Origin: an uncultured Lentisphaeria bacterium
GTDB taxonomy: Bacteria > Fidelibacterota > UBA8477 > JABMPR01
Length of the DNA: 64,000 bases
Reading direction: 5' to 3'
Assembly (NCBI GenBank): GCA_964469505.1
Contig: CAYXZO010000001.1
Location: 37,402 to 101,401 of the forward strand
Positions within the stretch are counted from its first letter, which is position 1, and every line of letters begins with the position of its first letter. The translations under genes were made by a program, and so were the position numbers. The notes below the pieces were generated by a model. The model searched no databases and had not been told where the DNA came from. It worked only from the letters and a program-made list of their open reading frames with translations. Below are positions 709-60,047 of this stretch, piece by piece.

Positions 709-1173
709 TTACCTAAAATGAGCAAAAGCCTTGTTGGCTTCCGCCATCCGGTGAGTATCTTCACGTTTCTTAATGGCTCCGCCTTCATTATTAGCGGCCG
801 CAATCAGTTCGGCCGCTAATTTCTCCGCCATAGACCGCCCCGAACGGGCCTTGGCGTAGCTGATAATCCAGCGATAAGCAAGGGCATATCGTCGTTCTGG
901 CCGTACTTCCACCGGAACCTGGTAGGTGGCCCCACCGACACGCTTGGAACGCACCTCAATTACAGGAGCCACATTTTCCACCGCTTTCTTGAAGAATTCC
1001 AGGGGATCACTTTTGGTACGCTGCCTGATCCGTTCAAAAGCAGTGTAGACGATTCGTTCCGCTAAGCCCTTTTTGCCCCGGCGCATCACATAGTTGATGA
1101 ACTTGGCGACCATTACATCGTTGTAAACCGGATCCGGGGCGATTTTACGTTTTTCAGGTCGTTTTCTGCGCAT
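709..1173 (-). CDS. rpsG: 30S ribosomal protein S7
   Basis: 154-aa ORF with S7-like sequence (…[34 protein letters not shown]…). It lies 14 nt downstream of rpsL and 14 nt upstream of fusA. Confidence 0.95.
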
Positions 1174-1187
1174 ATTCCTCTCGGCTA

Positions 1188-1565
1188 TTACTGCTGTTTA
1201 GGTCGCTTGGCTCCGTAGCGGGAACGACTGGTTCTACGCTGTTCCACTCCCGCTGCATCCAGGGTTCCACGGATTATGTGGTAACGCACGCCCGGCAGGT
1301 CTTTCACTCGCCCGCCCTCGATGAGGACGATGGAGTGTTCCTGCAAGTTATGGCCTTCCCCCGGAATGTAAGCGGTTACCTCGATTCCGTTGGTAAGACG
1401 CACTCTAGCCACCTTCCGCAGTGCGGAATTCGGTTTCTTCGGCGTTGTCGTATAAACACGTGTGCAAACCCCGCGTTTCTGGGGGTTACCTTTCAGGGCC
1501 GGGGCTTTCTTCTTCTTGGTAATGGAGCGTCGCCCCAGCCGCACTAACTGATTAATTGTCGGCAT
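1188..1565 (-). CDS. rpsL: 30S ribosomal protein S12. The listed ORF extends to 1592, but the MPTINQLVR start at 1565 is the conserved one.
   Basis: [13 protein letters not shown]…[58 protein letters not shown] is near-universal S12. GGGAG SD lies upstream of the internal ATG. Confidence 0.95.
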
Positions 1566-1627
1566 GCGTTCTCCCTTTAAAAAAGCCGCCAATTATAATT
1601 TTCGGCACCTGGGCAGTCAAGGTCAAT

Positions 1628-5893
<4,266 letters not shown>

Positions 5894-12625: not shown

Positions 12626-12698
<73 letters not shown>

Positions 12699-12714
12699 GT
12701 GCATGGCTGGAATG

Positions 12715-12879
12715 TCACTTGGTCTCTTTGAAGATGACGTGTTTGCGAGCAATAGGATCGTATTTCTTGTACTCCAGCCGTTGCGGATGCTTTTGTTTAT
12801 TCTTAGTAACTGTATATCGGTAGCCGGTTCCAGCCGTACTCTCGAGCTGCACGATTACCCGTTTGCTTTTTCCTGCCAC
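12715..12879 (-). CDS. rpmG: 50S ribosomal protein L33 (GTG start). Absent from the ORF track because it is under 60 aa.
   Basis: Hand translation gives [54 protein letters not shown], which matches L33 (…[27 protein letters not shown]…). It lies between tuf and tRNA-Trp as in many genomes. Confidence 0.85.
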
Positions 12880-12894
12880 AGCTCAAGCCCTCGT

Positions 12895-14088
12895 TTATTC
12901 CAGTATTTCAGTAACAACGCCGGCCCCCACGGTGTGACCGCCTTCACGAATGGCGAAACGCAGTTCTTTCTCCATCGCCACCGGCGCTATCAACTCCACC
13001 GTCAGGTTTACATTATCTCCCGGCATCACCATCTTGACATCTTCCGGCAACTCTACCACACCCGTCACATCCGTGGTCCGAAAATAAAACTGCGGCCGAT
13101 ATCCATTGAAAAACGGCGTGTGACGACCACCTTCCTCTTTCTTCAAGATGTACACCTCGGCCTTGAACTTCTTGTGCGGCTTCACACTACCAGGCTTGGC
13201 AACCACCATCCCGCGACGCAACCAATCCTTATCTATACCACGCAACAATAATCCCACATTGTCGCCTGCCTGACCAGTGTCCAAAATCTTCCGGAACATC
13301 TCCACTCCCGTCACCACAGTCTTCTTCGGCTCCGGAACTAAACCAACTATCTCTACCTCATCACCAACCTTGATAATTCCACGCTCAATTCGACCTGTAC
13401 CTACTGTACCACGACCCGTAATACTGAACACATCCTCAACCGGCATCAAAAACGGCTTGTCAATGTCACGTACTGGCTCCGGTATGTAATTGTCGATCGC
13501 ATCCAACAACTCCTGAATGCTCTTCGTCTTCTCCGGATCTTCCGGATGCTGCAACGCTTCCAACGCACTACCACGAATTACCGGTACTTCATCACCAGGA
13601 AACTCATACTCATTCAACAAATCCCGCAACTCCATCTCCACCAAGTCCAACAACTCCGGATCATCAACCTGATCAACCTTGTTCATATATACCACTATCG
13701 ATGGCACATTCACCTGACGCGCCAACAACACGTGCTCACGGGTCTGAGGCATCGCTCCATCAGCCGCACTCACCACCAGTATCGCCCCGTCCATCTGGGC
13801 CGCACCCGTGATCATGTTCTTGATGTAGTCCGCGTGACCAGGACAGTCCACGTGGGCGTAATGACGCTTGTCCGTCTCATACTCCACATGGGCCGTCGCT
13901 ATCGTAATTCCCCGCTCACGCTCCTCCGGCGCATTGTCTATCGAATCAAACGAACGAAACTCACTCAATCCTTTCCGCGACAAATAAGCCGTGATCGCCG
14001 CCGTCAACGTCGTCTTACCGTGGTCCACATGACCAATCGTCCCTACGTTTACATGCGGCTTCGTCCGCTCAAATTTCTCTTTTGCCAT
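12895..14088 (-). CDS. tuf: Elongation factor Tu
   Basis: 397 aa beginning [33 protein letters not shown]…, with DCPGHADY and NKVD motifs. Confidence 0.97.
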
Positions 14089-14137
14089 CAGTATCCTCCA
14101 TTCAACCTAGTTGTGTTCAAACCCGGGTGGGGAGTAG

Positions 14138-14210
14138 AGCTCGGGAGCGGACTTGAACCGCCGACCTTCTCCTTACCAAGGAGGTGCTCTACCGACTGAG
14201 CTACCCGAGC
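14138..14210 (-). tRNA. tRNA-Thr (anticodon GGT)
   Basis: The reverse complement reads GCTCGGGTAGCTCAGTCGGTAGAGCACCTCCTTGGTAAGGAGAAGGTCGGCGGTTCAAGTCCGCTCCCGAGCT. The acceptor stem is GCTCGGG/CCCGAGC. It sits 49 nt upstream of tuf. Confidence 0.85.
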
Positions 14211-14257
14211 ACAAGGGACAATGAAAATGCCCCGGAACGGGGCAACACACTGTCCGT

Positions 14258-14331
14258 TGGAGCGGGTGATGAGAATCGAACTCACATCACCAGCTTGGAA
14301 GGCTGGGGTTCTACCATTGAACTACACCCGC
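14258..14331 (-). tRNA. tRNA-Gly (anticodon TCC), CCA encoded
   Basis: The reverse complement reads GCGGGTGTAGTTCAATGGTAGAACCCCAGCCTTCCAAGCTGGTGATGTGAGTTCGATTCTCATCACCCGCTCCA. Confidence 0.85.
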
Positions 14332-14381
14332 GGGTTCCAACAGCAATTTGGTATTGCCTCCCCACCATTGTAAAAAAGCTG

Positions 14382-14465
14382 TGGGCCGGGATGGATTCGA
14401 ACCACCGTACCCATTACGGGAGCAGATTTACAGTCTGCCGCCTTTAACCACTCGGCCACCGACCC
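14382..14465 (-). tRNA. tRNA-Tyr (anticodon GTA), long variable arm
   Basis: The reverse complement reads GGGTCGGTGGCCGAGTGGTTAAAGGCGGCAGACTGTAAATCTGCTCCCGTAATGGGTACGGTGGTTCGAATCCATCCCGGCCCA. It has a class II variable arm and a GGTTCGAATCC T-arm. Confidence 0.8.
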
Positions 14466-14475
14466 AGTTCCCAGG

Positions 14476-14548
14476 AGCCAAGGAAGGGACTCGAACCCCC
14501 GACCGGCGGTTTACAAAACCGCTGCTCTACCAACTGAGCTACCTTGGC
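14476..14548 (-). tRNA. tRNA-Thr (anticodon TGT)
   Basis: The reverse complement reads GCCAAGGTAGCTCAGTTGGTAGAGCAGCGGTTTTGTAAACCGCCGGTCGGGGGTTCGAGTCCCTTCCTTGGCT. Confidence 0.85.
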
Positions 14549-54436: not shown

Positions 54437-56805
54437 TACACCTCTTTTATTTGCAAACTCTTGGGTTTCAGGAGGATGAAGACACCGGGCACGATGGTCA
54501 GAGCTCCAAAAGCCGCCGTGAGCATGGTGAGGGTAATCATGGCTCCCATTTCCCGAATGGGTACGAAGGCCGAAGTGGCAATCACCGCGAAACCCGCCGC
54601 CACCACGATGGAGTTGTACAGGATAGCCAGCCCCGACTCACGCATGGTAGCCCCGACCGCGGATTCGTAAGTATGCCCCTCCTTCAGCTTCATCCGGTAG
54701 CGATGGATGAAATGAATGGCATAGTCCACTCCCACCCCGATGGCAATACTGGAAGTAGTCAGAGTCTCTAGGTTGATCTTTATGCCGGTGAAGCCCATTA
54801 CGGCAAAGTTCAAAACTAGGGCGAAAAAGAGGGGTAGAGTGTTGAAAAAACCCACCACGGGTGAGCGGAACATGAAAGTGGTCAGCAGCCAGACCAGAAA
54901 CAGAGAGGTAATGATGCTGTAGAACTGCCCTTTAACGATCATGTCATCCACTACCGTGACCAGCTTGGCCAGCCCGGTGACAGCGGCTTGTACGGAGTCG
55001 TTATTCACATGCTGCTCCAGGTAACGGGAGAGAACATGATCCACCCGCCGCAGGGCTGCCACGTCGTCTGTGTTGAGCATGATGTTCATCTTGCCGTACT
55101 GGTATTTGTAATCCACCAGATTTTCCATGCTGCCGGGTTTGCCGGACATTTCCAGCAGTTGAAGATATTGGGCCACCAATTCACGGCCCGAGACCCGATA
55201 GGTTTTTTCCACTTCCTTCCAAGTGCCATTCTCTTCCACCCATTCGGTTCCGGTTACATTGGTACTCTCAGGCGGAATGCGGTAAAAGGCGGGATCATCG
55301 GCATGGAGCACCTTATTAATGCGCTTGATAAAGTCAGCCAGTGATTGGACGCTGCCCACGTGCGGCTGCCGCAGCGCCAGGTCTTTCAAGGAATCCAGTC
55401 TGGCAAGAAGCAAAGGATCTTTCATAACATCCTCGCGCCGCCCTTCCACCATAACGGCGAAACCAGTGGTGCCGGCGAAGTGCTCATTGACCCATTCCGC
55501 TGCTTCCCGCACCGGGTGGCCTTCAGGAAAACCTTTGATTGAAGAAAAACCATAATCCAACCGGGTGAATCCCCAAACTGCAATGAGGAGGGTGAGTATT
55601 ATAAAAGGCAACATCAGCTGTTTCTCTTTCACCAAGAAATTACCCCAACGCTCCATTAAATCAGCTCCGTTGCGGCGTGCCTTATATTTGCGGAAACGAA
55701 GGGGTACTGGGAGAAGTACTAAAAAAGCGGGGAACCAAGTCAACGTCAATACGAGGGCGAAAAGCACTCCCAGGGCAGTGAATATTCCCAGTGTGGCAAC
55801 CGAGGTAGCTCCCACCGTGCCTAAGGCGATAAAGCCAGCCATGGTGGTTAAAGAGGTCATAATTACTGGTGCACTCATCTCTTGCATGGTTATCTCGGTT
55901 AGCTCGGCTGAAGTGGCTCCCGGCTTTTCTCCTGCATGGTGGTAAAAATGGGAAAGTATGTGAATACTATCCGCCACGGCGATGGCCATGATGAGTATGG
56001 GCAGAATTTCCAGGGCGTGCCCCATGGGAATCTTAAGCAGCGCCAGGAGTCCCATGGTCCAGATCACAGAGAATATGACTACTGATAGCGGCAAGAAAAT
56101 CCCCCGGAAATTGCGGAATATTACGAGAAGCAGCAGGAAAATAATCCCGATGCCGGCCATGAAAAAAATACCCATGTCCCGCTGCATACCCTGGCTCACG
56201 TAATAACTAACCACCGGTTTACCGGTAATGATCACCTTCAGCTTAGTAGTATTGCGAAACTTGTCGATATCCTTGATGAGCTGGGCCACAAATTTAGGGA
56301 CATCGGCTGTGCTTTTCAGGAAAAGCATAATACCAAATGCCTGCTGATCTTTGCTGACCAGATTGCCCAGCGCCAGATCGCTATGAAACAGGTCATAACG
56401 AAAATGTTCGATATCAACGGCGGCCTTAGGCGGCTCTGAAAGGATATCATAAACCTCCATACCTTCGGGAGTTCCTTTGATCACAGAAACATTGGTGGGA
56501 GAAATAACCGAATGAACCGCCGGGTAGGTTTCCAGTTTTTTGGTAAGTTGCCACACGGTTTGGAGATTCTCGGGTGCGAAAATATCATCTCCAGACAAGC
56601 CCACGAAAATGAACTCCTGGGAAGGAAATATTTCCCCCATTTTATCATAGAGACGCTTAGCGGGGATATGTTGGGGCAGCGCCGCAGTGACATCCGGATT
56701 CATTTTTAGATTCCTGATGGCATACCCCAGCCCCAAGGTGATAACAAGATTTATTACAATTAAGGTTTTCGGGAAACGTAACACCAGGCGTATCCAGTGG
56801 TTCAT
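54436..56805 (-). CDS. MMPL/RND-superfamily transporter (HpnN-like, 12 TM with two periplasmic loops)
   Basis: 789 aa beginning MNHWIRLVLRFPKTLIVINLVITLGLGYAI…, with two hydrophobic 6-TM bundles (…AVADSIHILSHFYH… conserved TM4-like region). Confidence 0.85.
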   Translation of the reverse strand: MNHWIRLVLRFPKTLIVINLVITLGLGYAIRNLKMNPDVTAALPQHIPAKRLYDKMGEIFPSQEFIFVGLSGDDIFAPENLQTVWQLTKKLETYPAVHSVISPTNVSVIKGTPEGMEVYDILSEPPKAAVDIEHFRYDLFHSDLALGNLVSKDQQAFGIMLFLKSTADVPKFVAQLIKDIDKFRNTTKLKVIITGKPVVSYYVSQGMQRDMGIFFMAGIGIIFLLLLVIFRNFRGIFLPLSVVIFSVIWTMGLLALLKIPMGHALEILPILIMAIAVADSIHILSHFYHHAGEKPGATSAELTEITMQEMSAPVIMTSLTTMAGFIALGTVGATSVATLGIFTALGVLFALVLTLTWFPAFLVLLPVPLRFRKYKARRNGADLMERWGNFLVKEKQLMLPFIILTLLIAVWGFTRLDYGFSSIKGFPEGHPVREAAEWVNEHFAGTTGFAVMVEGRREDVMKDPLLLARLDSLKDLALRQPHVGSVQSLADFIKRINKVLHADDPAFYRIPPESTNVTGTEWVEENGTWKEVEKTYRVSGRELVAQYLQLLEMSGKPGSMENLVDYKYQYGKMNIMLNTDDVAALRRVDHVLSRYLEQHVNNDSVQAAVTGLAKLVTVVDDMIVKGQFYSIITSLFLVWLLTTFMFRSPVVGFFNTLPLFFALVLNFAVMGFTGIKINLETLTTSSIAIGVGVDYAIHFIHRYRMKLKEGHTYESAVGATMRESGLAILYNSIVVAAGFAVIATSAFVPIREMGAMITLTMLTAAFGALTIVPGVFILLKPKSLQIKEV

Positions 56806-57620
56806 GTTTTCTCCTTGAAGAACGCGTTGAAGATTGTCTCCAGGTGGTCAATCTCCTTGTCCAGATACGTTCGCGAATAGCCACGTAGCAGTTTGGAGCT
56901 CAACCCCAGCAAGAAAGTCCAGATAATCTGAATCATGAGATTGGCATCCTCGGGAGCCATTCGGGGCAGACGAGCGGCGAAAAGACGATTCAGCTCCTGG
57001 TGGTGCAATTCCCGTAGTTCAGCAATTTCCCGGCAATTAAGCAGTTCCTCCGGAGCATGGGTACCCAAAGGCATGAATAGGCGCAAGAAATGAGGGTTTT
57101 GCTCCATGAAGTCCAGGTAGGAATGCATCATGGTGGAGAACAACCGTTCCCGGGGGGTCTGCCATAGAGTTTCCAGCAACCGGCGGTAGTACCGATCTAC
57201 CATCTCACCATGCATAGCGGTGTATATGGCTTCCTTACTGGGGAAGTAATAATAGAGGGTAGCTTTCCCCAGCCTGGCTGCAGCCGCGATTTCCGCCATG
57301 GTGGTATTGCGGTAACCATTTTGGGCAAAGAGACGAAAAGCGGTTTCCAGGATCAGTTGGCGTCGCTGTTCTTTTTCTTGTGCTCGTCTTTCGTGGTGAG
57401 GATTTCGACCGCTTGTTTTATTTTCGACCACTCGGTCGAATAAACATAATTCATCCCGAAACAGCAAGAATTTTTTTCGAAAATCCAGGGCATAATGAGG
57501 GCGTTTTCGAGACGCGTAATCATTCGTCTTTACGTGATTCCGTTCTCCACCTAGCCGCGGCGGAAAGCAACCACCGGCAAACCGTAGGGCGAAATTCATT
57601 TCGCTGTAAAAGTCCTCCAC
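56802..57620 (-). CDS. TetR/AcrR-family transcriptional regulator. The N-terminus is uncertain: the listed start is GTG, and the HTH begins about 85 aa in.
   Basis: HTH …ILETAFRLFAQNGYRNTTMAEIAAAARLGKATLYYYFPSKEAIY… The stop overlaps the MMPL start by 4 nt. Confidence 0.82.
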   Translation of the reverse strand: MEDFYSEMNFALRFAGGCFPPRLGGERNHVKTNDYASRKRPHYALDFRKKFLLFRDELCLFDRVVENKTSGRNPHHERRAQEKEQRRQLILETAFRLFAQNGYRNTTMAEIAAAARLGKATLYYYFPSKEAIYTAMHGEMVDRYYRRLLETLWQTPRERLFSTMMHSYLDFMEQNPHFLRLFMPLGTHAPEELLNCREIAELRELHHQELNRLFAARLPRMAPEDANLMIQIIWTFLLGLSSKLLRGYSRTYLDKEIDHLETIFNAFFKEKT

Positions 57621-57627
57621 AAAGTAG

Positions 57628-57666
57628 TGTTAAACGGTGTTTAAACGACGTTTAATGGTCGTTGAA
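57628..57666. promoter_or_regulatory. Near-palindromic AT-rich motif (gtgttaaacggtgtttaaacgacgtttaatggtcgtt) directly upstream of the tetR ORF. Candidate TetR operator.
   Basis: Contains GTTTAAAC and an AACGAC…GTCGTT inverted repeat. Positional inference only. Confidence 0.25.
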
Positions 57667-57750
57667 TGCCTGATTTACTGAATAACCGGTGCCCGTGGCG
57701 GGGTGCCTACCCCGGCGATGTTCCTCAATACGCGGGTGGGCAGTCCGATG

Positions 57751-57905
57751 TGTCATTGCGAGTGAGTCCCGATCCCGCCCTGGCGGGAGGATGAACGAAG
57801 CAATCCGTCAGATATTTCCATTACACTCTTCCTGCCGCCGGTCCTTTCCGACGAACCGGTACGGATTGCTTCGTCTCCCGATAAATCGGGATCCTCGCAA
57901 TGACA
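57751..57905. repeat. Approximately 155-bp nested inverted-repeat element: outer arms tgtcattgcgag…gatcccg / cgggatcctcgcaatgaca, and inner 13-bp perfect IR cgaagcaatccgt / acggattgcttcg. MITE-like or structured RNA.
   Basis: Arms at 57751-57777 vs 57886-57905 and 57796-57808 vs 57861-57873, read from the sequence. There is also a cccgcc..ggcggg mini-palindrome at 57774-57787. Confidence 0.4.
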
Positions 57906-58223
57906 GGCCGGGAGCCTGGACGGAGTTTGCGGAGGGGTATGGGTTTATTTCGGGTTGTTATTGCCCTCTGCCCTCCGGCGGAGACGGGGCTCGGTTCTTG
58001 GGGCATCATACTGAAGTATGGTGTTGTTTACATTACGGTTCTTTTCCGGGCACAGCCTTACCAACCCTCCCCCAGGCTTACAATCCTGCCCTCCAACCAT
58101 TAATATCTCAATAACCCTCGGATACATAGCTACTTAGCTACATAGATACCCCCACACCCCCTTGCTCCCTCCTCCCTCATCCTTTCCATTGCCTTTTTCG
58201 TGGATTACCGGTAGGCTTAAGGG

Positions 58224-60047
58224 ATGAGCAAAAAATTGTACGTGCTTTTGCTTACGGCATTGCTGGTGACGACTTGCCGGCCAACTGAGCCGCCTTTACG
58301 CTCATGGCGGGATGAGATCGTTTACTTCATCCTGGTGGATCGGTTCCGGAACGGTGATCCCTCCAATGACACTGGAGGTATCCCCGGCAGTCATATTCCA
58401 TACACCGGAGATAATCCTGAAGCTCTGAAAACCTACCAGGGCGGCGATCTGTTGGGCATTATGCAAGAACTGGACAATCTCAAAAGCCTCGGAGTAACGG
58501 CTCTCTGGCTTTCTCCCATCTGGGACAACTCCAACCGTGACTATGTGGGCTGGTGGCCCTATCACGGTTATCAACCGGTGAATTTCTATCAGGTGGAGGA
58601 GCATTTCGGCGATAAAGCCCTGCTTAAAAAATTAGTTCGAAATATCCATGACAAAGGTTTCAAGCTGCTGTGCGACCTAGCCTTGAATCAGACCGCTGCT
58701 GATCATCCCTGGGTGACAGACCAGACGCATCGGGATTGGTTCCACCACGATTCCACCGGCCGGCCCTTTGACATCACGGATTGGAACGACCAGCGCCAAC
58801 TGGAGATGGGCGAACTGCACGGCCTACCCGACCTGGCTCAGGAAAATCCCCAGGTGACCGATACGCTTCTGGCCATCGCCTATCATTGGGCGAAGCTCAT
58901 GGAATGCGATGGTTTCCGCCTGGACGCCGTCAAGCATATTCCCCGCTCGTTCTGGAAACGCTTCAATGCCGAGATACGACAAGCCTTTGGATCTGATTTT
59001 CTGTTACTGGGGGAAGTATTCTGGGGTGAAGCCGAACGCCTGGCACCCTACGCCACAATCGGTTTCAACGCGCTGTTCGATATTCCCGGCTATTACGCCA
59101 TTCACCGGGTTTTTGGACAGGGAGCCTCGGCCAAGCTCCTCTCCCAGGCCCTGCGCCAGAAACACCGTTACTACGGCAACTTGTTGGTGGCCCGCTTGAT
59201 CGACAATCACGACCTGCCCCGCTTCAATACGGGACTGCGTGACCATCCCTGGGAACGGGAACGGCTGGCTTTGGGGTACATTTTAACTCTGCCGGGTCTG
59301 CCGGTGCTCTACTACGGCACTGAAATCGGGATGCCCGGCGCGCCGGTGCTTAATTCCCAAACGGGTGAACCCCAGGATTACCTGAACCGCCTGCCCTACC
59401 CCACTCACTTTTCGTCGGAGCAGCAACGTCGCTGGCAGGACACCCGGCAGCTCATCGAACTGCGCAAAGTACATCCCGCCTTGCGGCGAGGGCGGTTCCT
59501 GGAATTGTACCGGGATTGGGGAGTTTATGCCTACCTGCGGCTCACATCGCGAGAGCATCTGGCGGTATTCATAAACACCGCCGTCACGCCTGAAACAATC
59601 AGAGTGGCCCTGGGTGATTCGTTGAGCATCAGTGGTTTAAATTCTCCGGTTTACGGTTCGGGTCTAGTCAAGTTGCATGATTCAGCCCTGGTGGCCCAAC
59701 TCCCGCCGTTGAGCCTGACGGTGGTTCCCTTCCAGGGGCGCTGCCGGCGCCAGTCCCCCTGGGTGACATTCACCGACCGTTTCACTGGCGATTACCGCCT
59801 GGTGGAACTCTCCTACCCCGCTTCTATCAGCGATACCCTTGCTGTAGCCGGGGACTTCAATAACTGGCAGCCGCAGCCCTATAAGCAGCGCCATCAGGAT
59901 GGCCGAGTCGTAACAACCTTGCCTCTACGGCTTGGCCGTTACCGCTACAAATTCGTGGTCAACGGCAAATGGGTAGCCGATCCCGCTGCGACGGAACGCG
60001 AACGGGATCCTTACGGCGGTTGGAATAGTATTTTGAACGTGCAGTAA
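58224..60047 (+). CDS. GH13 alpha-amylase-family lipoprotein with a C-terminal starch/glycogen-binding (CBM48/E-set-like) domain
   Basis: 607 aa with signal peptide MSKKLYVLLLTALLVTTC. GH13 motifs …DLALNQTAADH…, …GFRLDAVKHI…, …LLGEVFWG…, …LIDNHDLPRF…. C-terminal …AGDFNNWQPQPY…YRYKFVVNGKWVADP…. Confidence 0.9.
   Translation: MSKKLYVLLLTALLVTTCRPTEPPLRSWRDEIVYFILVDRFRNGDPSNDTGGIPGSHIPYTGDNPEALKTYQGGDLLGIMQELDNLKSLGVTALWLSPIWDNSNRDYVGWWPYHGYQPVNFYQVEEHFGDKALLKKLVRNIHDKGFKLLCDLALNQTAADHPWVTDQTHRDWFHHDSTGRPFDITDWNDQRQLEMGELHGLPDLAQENPQVTDTLLAIAYHWAKLMECDGFRLDAVKHIPRSFWKRFNAEIRQAFGSDFLLLGEVFWGEAERLAPYATIGFNALFDIPGYYAIHRVFGQGASAKLLSQALRQKHRYYGNLLVARLIDNHDLPRFNTGLRDHPWERERLALGYILTLPGLPVLYYGTEIGMPGAPVLNSQTGEPQDYLNRLPYPTHFSSEQQRRWQDTRQLIELRKVHPALRRGRFLELYRDWGVYAYLRLTSREHLAVFINTAVTPETIRVALGDSLSISGLNSPVYGSGLVKLHDSALVAQLPPLSLTVVPFQGRCRRQSPWVTFTDRFTGDYRLVELSYPASISDTLAVAGDFNNWQPQPYKQRHQDGRVVTTLPLRLGRYRYKFVVNGKWVADPAATERERDPYGGWNSILNVQ

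Follow-up and report, generated by a model that had tools for sequence, protein, structure and literature searches.

A nested inverted repeat between divergent tetR-family and alpha-amylase genes as a probable head-to-head dimer of a TGTC-tagged hairpin repeat

Introduction

A 64-kb stretch of a bacterial contig (CAYXZO010000001.1; hereafter the window, whose positions are used throughout unless another locus is named) carries a roughly 155-bp palindromic element, at 57751–57905, in the spacer between a tetR-family gene and a divergent alpha-amylase gene. What this element is, and whether it serves either neighboring gene, are the questions raised by the locus. The original prediction regarded its nested arms as typical of a MITE (a transposable element of the miniature inverted-repeat type) or a structured RNA, and proposed that it might act as an insulator, a terminator, or a cis-regulatory RNA for either gene. 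The analysis described herein led to another reading, which we consider likely: in the element, two units of a hairpin repeat from the superfamily of CGTC/TGTC-tagged repetitive extragenic palindromes (REPs) and Ssn-related motifs (SRMs) form a head-to-head heterodimer. The element would be a gene-less, non-autonomous relative of the cassettes in which two such units bracket an ssn gene, and likely a passive insertion. It would then add another copy to a repeat class that was recently explained and whose protein partner was identified in 2025, rather than being a new RNA or a classical transposon.

Architecture and folding of the element

Inspection of the sequence confirmed that a nested inverted repeat is present at 57751–57905 in the tetR–amylase spacer, with small corrections to its arms. 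The outer arms, proposed as 57751–57777 and 57886–57905 with a bulge, were found to be perfect over 12 bp (TGTCATTGCGAG at 57751–57762 and CTCGCAATGACA at 57894–57905), whereas the remainder consists only of an imperfect 19-nt pairing (57771–57789 with 57875–57893, 74% complementary). The inner repeat is real, but its perfect arms extend over 14 bp rather than the proposed 13 bp (ACGAAGCAATCCGT at 57795–57808 and ACGGATTGCTTCGT at 57861–57874). Each side carries one small hairpin between its outer and inner arms, CCGGT/ACCGG (57838–57859) occupies the center, and the element is bordered by ...CCGATG on the left and GGCCGG... on the right.

The stability of the segment 57745–57911 was assessed against 200 dinucleotide-preserving shuffles per strand and molecule. 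Folded as RNA, the segment displayed a minimum free energy of −78.2 kcal/mol (z −6.6) on the + strand and −84.3 kcal/mol (z −7.2) on the − strand, and the + strand folded as DNA gave −45.4 kcal/mol (z −7.3); none of the 200 shuffles was as stable in any of the three cases.

The two halves of the element were revealed to be opposite copies of one unit, T-GTC-ATTGC-GAG-(insert)-CGAA-GCAAT-CC, with the tags facing outward; the unit can also be given by its arms, YGTCATTGCGAG...CGAAGCAATC. The features are as follows.

57751–57808, + strand: left unit, with TGTC at 57751–57754, ATTGC at 57755–57759, GAG at 57760–57762, a 33-nt insert at 57763–57795, CGAA at 57796–57799, GCAAT at 57800–57804, and the tail CCGT
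About 57773–57788, + strand: distal hairpin of the left unit, CCCGCC/GGCGGG (in the fold of single-stranded DNA (ssDNA), TCCCGC/GCGGGA with the loop CCTG); a variable module
57809–57860, no strand: spacer between the units, 52 nt, containing the CCGGT/ACCGG hairpin at 57838–57859
57861–57905, − strand: right unit, with TGTC at 57905–57902, ATTGC-GAG, the 20-nt insert GATCCCGATTTATCGGGAGA, CGAA-GCAAT, and the tail CCGT
57877–57890, − strand: CCCGAT-(AA/TT)-ATCGGG, forming the right unit's distal hairpin; inserts of this type are very common among family members
57745–57750, + strand: putative Ssn cleavage zone of the left unit, placed by analogy with SsnA of Neisseria meningitidis
About 57906–57911, − strand: putative Ssn cleavage zone of the right unit, the mirror of the left zone and likewise placed by analogy

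Both units match the exact 11-mer cores GTCATTGCGAG and CGAAGCAATCC of the family consensus, with T before GTC, and both are intact at every conserved position. When folded alone as ssDNA, the left unit gave −9.7 kcal/mol and the right unit −7.4 kcal/mol, in a fold comprising an unpaired tag, the 5-bp ATTGC/GCAAT stem, a purine-rich internal loop, the distal hairpin, and an unpaired tail. The spacer, 52–57 nt depending on the unit ends chosen, is long relative to those of 107 other dimers (median 23, range 5–102). In the whole 64-kb window, both 11-mer cores were found at the element site only, and a generic scan for tag, stem and tail detected no second copy, its two other matches being at shuffle level. 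The other contigs fetched for this organism, which are identical to the window or overlap it, likewise contained no further copies of the element, including at the left edge of the window.

A dispersed family of hairpin units

Beyond the window, the pattern GTCATTGCGAG-N(3-33)-CGAAGCAATCC gave at least 120 matches in IMG/VR, and a narrower pattern with the right-unit insert, CCCGATTTATCGGG, gave at least 120 in JGI metagenomes. Among the metagenome matches listed, TCCCGATTTATCGGGA was the commonest insert (70 of 216 units), and the commonest unit of the family was the 27-mer GTCATTGCGAG-CGNAG-CGAAGCAATCC. The right unit of the window was 90–95% identical over 42–46 nt to units of dozens of metagenome and viral contigs, and the spacer and the left insert, which had no match in roughly 340 fetched loci, are unique to the window locus. 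A blastn search of plasmids with the whole 167-nt element returned only chance-level fragments of 20–38 nt, the canonical doublet being needed as a query. This doublet was detected at no fewer than 40 places on one Novosphingobium resinovorum replicon and also on plasmids of Methylobacterium, Methylosinus, Legionella, Aulosira, and Calothrix, in every case in unannotated intergenic DNA; the family is multi-copy on alphaproteobacterial and cyanobacterial replicons. A full-text literature search for 9–10-mers gave primer-type coincidences only.

The arrangement seen in the window was shown to be that of the family. Neighboring units were oriented with tags out in 75 cases versus 2 in the opposite arrangement, and 96 of the 107 distinct dimers were heterodimers, as is the window element; units also occur singly and in tandem. 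In the units of viral-contig dimers, the 22 core positions were each 88–100% conserved, with Y before GTC: this base was T in 82% of the units of the right-insert subtype and C in 81% of the viral-contig dimers, and the consensus tail of family dimers was CC-A/G. Outside the core, insert stems of at least 5 bp (e.g., CCCGAT/ATCGGG, GCTGAC/GTCAGC, and CCGCG/CGCGG) were present in 31% of 128 distinct inserts versus 4.6% of shuffled inserts. The basal stem of related units was found to covary (TGC/GCA, 333; TCT/AGA, 19; CGC/GCG, 7; also TCC, CCC as CCC/GGG, and CCT). With distal stems of many sequences and a covarying basal stem, the structure is kept while the sequence changes.

These observations bear on two readings of the element. 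The first is a chance palindrome having neither family nor function, in favor of which its single occurrence in the 64-kb window could be cited; given that none of the 200 shuffles folds as well and that identical 11-mer cores recur in the same arrangement in hundreds of unrelated contigs, its probability is negligible. The second is a classical MITE, that is, a deletion derivative of a DDE-type insertion sequence (IS) mobilized in trans via its terminal inverted repeats (TIRs) and leaving target-site duplications (TSDs). Perfect 12-bp TIRs, a size of about 155 bp, an intergenic location, and a family that is multi-copy in many genomes would all fit, and classical MITEs such as Correia, ERIC, and Nezha resemble the element in size (about 100–200 bp), TIRs, intergenic position, and long hairpin. 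Classical MITEs carry TSDs and derive from DDE-transposase IS elements, neither of which was found for the window family. No direct repeat flanks the window element, and among 81 distinct dimers direct repeats were in no excess, whatever offset or length was tried, the counts being at or below those of shuffled controls; a flexible TSD search of 374 elements yielded local-repeat artifacts only. Moreover, the apparent TIRs are complete units that fold individually and occur singly and in tandem, and the same ends are conserved across phyla, where they bracket a GIY-YIG nuclease gene rather than a transposase gene, as described below. What stands of the MITE proposal is that the family is dispersed and multi-copy and that its members are small palindromic elements without autonomy; an origin as a TIR/TSD-type MITE is highly improbable.

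Association of the units with ssn genes

In Neisseria, the repeat NTS (oriented dRS3, CGTCATTCCCGCGMAVGCGGGAATCYRG) and related SRMs bracket ssnA, which encodes a 94-aa single-domain GIY-YIG protein (Chenal 2025, PMC11893778). A first scan, in which an alignment of Azospirillum/Neisseria-type Ssn homologues from annotated plasmids served as the query against species-representative genomes, gave 80 loci, most of which carried a + unit about 30 nt upstream of ssn and a − unit just downstream. The units at these loci were of the form YGTCAT-stem-loop-stem-ATCCA with many different stems, and units of the ATTGCGAG type, the subfamily of the window element, were present in 3 of the 80 loci and bracketed ssn in none. 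On two plasmids, one from Planktothrix (TGTCATTCTGAG...CGAAGAATCTC) and one from Spirosoma (TGTCATCCCGAGGAACGAGGGATCT), ssn is bracketed by units that share the GAG/CGA design.

The Ssn clade associated with ATTGCGAG was reached only through the metagenome scan. Locus L327 contains a 96-aa GIY-YIG gene at 473–763 (PF01541, E 7e-18) that is preceded by ATTGCGAG-type units and followed by an inverted unit abutting the stop codon, and locus L316 contains a decayed ssn between two units. The L327 protein had 7,934 homologues at E<=1e-15, with named sources in Ignavibacteria/Melioribacter, Nostoc/Anabaena, KSB1, and Bacteroidota. From this clade, another six independent loci were obtained, five by exact-protein look-up and one as a viral contig, such that the seven loci span Ignavibacteria, Melioribacter, Anabaena, KSB1, Bacteroidota, and one viral contig. 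In all seven, ATTGCGAG-type units were present on both sides of the 95–96-aa gene, with 4–11 units at each locus. In L327, L336, L337, and L342, the nearest + unit ends 3–26 nt before the ATG and the − unit starts 0–4 nt past the stop codon; in L335, L339, and L341, the nearest + unit ends 50–113 nt upstream and the nearest − unit starts 13–70 nt downstream. The gene of L339, at 1501–1788, is that of Anabaena sp. PCC 7108. The clade protein was 46% identical over 90 aa to the SsnA homologue of N. gonorrhoeae (PLSDB NZ_CP119140.1 and NZ_CP119142.1, 2.17-Mb chromosome-sized records), which is itself flanked by NTS. By genomic association, a large Ssn clade has the ATTGCGAG-type unit as its cognate repeat.

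Within the viral contigs, a search by GIY-YIG regular expression and tblastn gave one frameshifted ssn (L045). In 120 viral contigs, the open reading frames (ORFs) lying no more than 600 nt from a unit were clustered, which yielded phage structural proteins and spurious read-through ORFs but no associated enzyme, and the pattern unit-N(300-330)-inverted unit matched arrays and chance occurrences in viral contigs, with no gene between the units.

Cassettes of ssn with their units were also observed inside operons: one lies between sufB and sufC on an Azospirillum lipoferum plasmid (L126, 2483–2776), and others between or after RND efflux genes in a Melioribacteraceae locus (L336) and a metagenome locus (L337), at 1501–1791 in both. 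Such placement is the behavior of a mobile insertion.

The identity of the bracketed gene also bears on a reading of the element as a REPIN, a REP doublet mobilized by a REP-associated tyrosine transposase (RAYT) of the IS200/IS605 HUH family. REPINs and RAYTs, reportedly described by Bertels and Rainey in 2011 and by Nunvar in 2010, resemble the window family in that short, individually palindromic repeats are paired as inverted doublets; these fold as ssDNA into a long hairpin, are non-autonomous, lack a TSD, and have a linked single-copy gene bracketed by the repeats. Their tag is GTAG and their enzyme an HUH tyrosine transposase, in contrast to the YGTC tag of the window family and its GIY-YIG nuclease, which is the flanked gene in 7 of 7 loci. 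In addition, in the study of CGTC-tagged REPs, CGTC repeats were seen to flank no gene for a tyrosine transposase, not even where a CGTC-positive species has RAYTs (Di Nocera 2013, PMC3733652), RAYT genes not having been searched for here. A REPIN is thus very unlikely.

Proposed origin and possible activity

In terms of the cassettes described above, the window element corresponds to two cassette ends with a 52-nt spacer in the place of the gene. Since it has the same two ends without the gene, we regard it as a gene-less, non-autonomous derivative or relative of the ssn cassette. The spacer was also considered as a remnant of a deleted ssn, and this candidate was rejected: the local alignment with seven ssn cassettes was within the shuffle distribution, and a by-eye likeness to the 3' end of L327 failed.

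The activity of such an element may be outlined by analogy with Neisseria. SsnA binds its hairpin as ssDNA only, accepting neither double-stranded DNA, RNA, nor the reverse strand, and the N. meningitidis enzyme makes its cut upstream of the tag, at a distance of a few nucleotides; for cutting, most weight falls on the three nucleotides preceding the palindrome, and for binding, on the C immediately following it, and the Neisseria system lowers transformation by NTS-containing DNA (PMC11893778). If the units of the window were bound and cleaved in the same manner, then on the locus becoming single-stranded either exposed strand would bear one sense unit, and a cognate Ssn could bind the exposed hairpin and introduce a nick 5' of the tag, a few nucleotides away, near 57745–57750 on the + strand or 57906–57911 on the − strand. 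If the whole element were single-stranded at once, the long hairpin would bury the tags, and because this hairpin is far more stable than the two unit hairpins, access by Ssn would depend on partial exposure.

As to the neighboring genes, the original prediction placed the element about 130 nt from tetR and about 320 nt from the amylase gene, and the distances were measured as 131 and 319 nt, given the longest tetR ORF. The tetR-family gene (56802–57620, minus strand, Pfam TetR_N) starts at 57620, and the ATG of the alpha-amylase gene (58224–60047, plus strand) lies at 58224. A role at the RNA level could take the form of a 5'-untranslated-region structure, a small structured RNA, a hairpin that stabilizes mRNA, or a terminator or insulator separating the amylase gene from the divergent tetR/MMPL operon. 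It would be in keeping with the very stable predicted RNA fold of both strands and with the single units of viral contigs, which often lie immediately upstream of ribosome-binding sites and show a strand bias of roughly 2:1; REP-type repeats are also reported as RNA stabilizers or terminators in other bacteria (PMC3733652). Rfam 15 gave no relevant match, whether for 57400–58300 at E<=10, for the entire window at the gathering threshold, or for six canonical-unit loci at E<=1. At the element, neither a T-run after either hairpin side nor a terminator-like or sigma-70-like site was found, and the sole terminator-like site of the region, at 58002–58025, is within chance expectation. The element is upstream of both flanking genes and therefore cannot terminate either. 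Furthermore, both strands fold equally because the element is a DNA palindrome, units occur in both orientations relative to genes, and the spacer and left insert are those of this locus alone; SsnA, as noted above, does not bind RNA. Neither a structured RNA nor a terminator was thus upheld, no support was found for an insulator or cis-regulatory role, and an RNA-level function is quite unlikely. A K-turn, a hammerhead, and an attC site were also considered and dropped on inspection, their defining motifs being absent.

Nothing suggests that the element regulates tetR or the amylase gene. Given its position between divergent genes, its unique spacer, and the absent RNA signals, it has most likely been inserted passively into this long spacer rather than serving as a regulator, and is presumably neutral for both genes, with no dedicated role for either.

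Further observations on the units

Single units in viral contigs were observed to be strand-biased: all 10 units of L070 are on the + strand and all 8 of L009 on the − strand. In crude gene calls, 28 single viral units were antisense to both flanking genes and 13 were sense, and many lie directly upstream of a ribosome-binding site of the opposite strand, e.g., ...catctctcacctctt/GTCATTGCGAG, where the slash marks the junction. This bias might, speculatively, reflect selection against exposing the cleavable strand.

Stacked 5' half-copies, consisting of the tag, the left stem arm, and about 7–12 pyrimidine-rich nt with a period of about 19–25 nt, were observed directly upstream of complete units (L124, 2220–2270 and 2861–2911; L183, 1875–1939; L197, 2207–2272; L128, 2415–2461; L220, L234, and L263). 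They occur in several SRM types, including the ATTGCGAG type with 13 cases of GTCATTGCGRG-N6-20-GTCATTGCGAG, and resemble the trace that rounds of cutting and copying at the tag would leave. No mention of them was found in PMC11893778 or PMC3733652.

At one single unit, about 18 nt that cover a ribosome-binding site and start codon (ggaggtaaggatatgacc) are imperfectly duplicated as flanking direct repeats, and this duplication is kept in three related contigs (L219, 1321–1357; L222, 2055–2091; L231, 884–920); this is an isolated case and no general TSD. In L208 (3069–3417) and L210 (4432–4780), ATTGCGAG-type dimers alternate in tandem with a second, unrelated palindromic repeat, TCATCCTTCGAGGCTCGC...CCTCAGGATGAGG, and spurious ORFs through these arrays give peptides including VIASAAKQS and LLAMT.

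A bolder reading can be formulated in which the GTCATTGCGAG...CGAAGCAATCC units constitute a distinct, cross-phylum, phage-borne class of Ssn-associated repeats that the SRM search string misses, with a fixed recognition base and an exchangeable distal hairpin, and in which the window copy is an active nicking site in a Marinimicrobia-like genome and not a relic. We regard this as unlikely; if it were true, the strand bias, the half-copies, and the operon-borne ssn cassettes might expose the spread of Ssn-linked repeats or the use of ssDNA nicking sites by phages and hosts against one another.

Genomic setting

The nearest homologues of the amylase are about 50% identical and belong mostly to Candidatus Marinimicrobia (FCB group). 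The Ignavibacteria and Bacteroidota that host the ATTGCGAG-associated Ssn clade are of the same superphylum as these Marinimicrobia. All contigs bearing this amylase were identical to the window, leaving no empty site for comparison.

On the tetR side of the spacer, operator-like palindromes were observed at 57403–57440 and 57630–57666, comprising TTCGACC-ACTC-GGTCGAA with another TTTCGACC before it, and two adjacent repeats of the TTAAACG-NN-GTTTAA type. These are more plausible binding sites for a TetR-family protein than is the 155-bp element. On the amylase side, 58123–58190 contains three overlapping 11-nt copies with an 8-nt period (TACATAGCTAC, TACTTAGCTAC, and TACATAGATAC) followed by a C-rich tract, ccccacaccccc...ctcctccctc, a region 35–100 nt upstream of the amylase start codon.

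A 141-aa ORF (57689–58114, +) runs through the element and had no Pfam hit, and a JGI record calls a 67-aa gene in this spacer, immediately downstream of the element (L121, 9677–9880); both are probably spurious. The unit generates such small ORFs, for instance this 141-aa ORF and peptides with ...VIASEAKQS... and ...LLAMT. For annotation, it is a 27–60-nt unit that occurs in very many genomes and phage contigs and may be mistaken for a MITE, a terminator, or a non-coding RNA.

Elsewhere, the window contains a cluster of five tRNA genes (12626–14548, −) and, at the left end of the window, rpsG and rpoC (709–5893, −); rpsL and rpoB lie beside rpsG/rpoC on a contig with an identical rpsG.

Comparison with known repeat systems

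As described, CGTC-tagged REPs have the tag CGTC, often TGTC or CCTC, stems that start with A-T, and unpaired CCA-like tails; they are mostly head-to-head heterodimers with the tags outside and spacers of 20–100 bp, sometimes containing small stem-loops; and they occur in Proteobacteria, Chlorobi, Bacteroidetes, Spirochaetes, and Thermotogae, with no transposase associated (PMC3733652). The four families so published, CGTC-1 to CGTC-4, have continuous stems of 8–9 bp and loops of 4–5 nt, Neisseria dRS3 being CGTC-1. The window element is in good agreement with this scheme: TGTC is found at 57751–57754 (+) and 57905–57902 (−), unpaired in the single-unit ssDNA folds; the ATTGC/GCAAT stem starts A-T, T-A; both units end in a short unpaired CC(G) tail; and the heterodimer has outward tags and a spacer of 52–57 nt with a small stem-loop. 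The tail CCG differs from the published CCA.

With the SRMs, the subfamily shares an oriented, many-copy hairpin with a 5' YGTC tag, a stem beginning with AT, and a C immediately after the palindrome. Both window units keep GTC and the C after GCAAT, which are 88–100% conserved in viral-contig dimers. As with NTS and ssnA, subfamily units bracket an approximately 95-aa single-domain GIY-YIG gene (cd10448-type) in the order unit-ssn-unit, in 7 of 7 loci.

Several points weigh against placing the element here. Its units combine a 5-bp stem, a GAG/CGAA internal loop, and a distal hairpin, with inserts of 33 and 20 nt, unlike the published CGTC families, and lack the continuous 8–9-bp palindrome of SRMs (ATTCCCGCG...CGCGGGAAT). 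The SRM string HGTCWYN(0-2)YYVSBRHN(0-5)WNVSBRGN(0-2)RNCYNB matched neither the window units, the canonical 30-nt unit, nor any part of the window; it matches the NTS positive control and is a search device, not a definition. Unlike SRM loci with their nuclease gene, the window contained no ssn or other GIY-YIG gene according to regular-expression and tblastn searches of its 64 kb, in which the element is single-copy. Lying between divergent genes is atypical for REPs, most of which are reported from positions downstream of genes (PMC3733652). If the whole element is single-stranded at once, the long hairpin (−45 kcal/mol), in which the tags are paired, is strongly favored over the two unit hairpins (about −17 kcal/mol in total), and ssDNA-only binding and cutting have been demonstrated for the Neisseria and Wolbachia enzymes (PMC11893778), which lie outside the ATTGCGAG-associated clade.

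Considering the failed SRM string, the non-continuous stem, and the absence of ssn from the window, we file the element in the CGTC/TGTC-tagged REP/SRM superfamily, with its subfamily linked to Ssn by genomic association. What is modestly new is that a large Ssn clade has, as its cognate repeat, a very common type of unit that the published SRM pattern does not pick up. This result extends the catalogue of Ssn/target pairs, which have been proposed as programmable ssDNA-cutting tools (PMC11893778), beyond that pattern.

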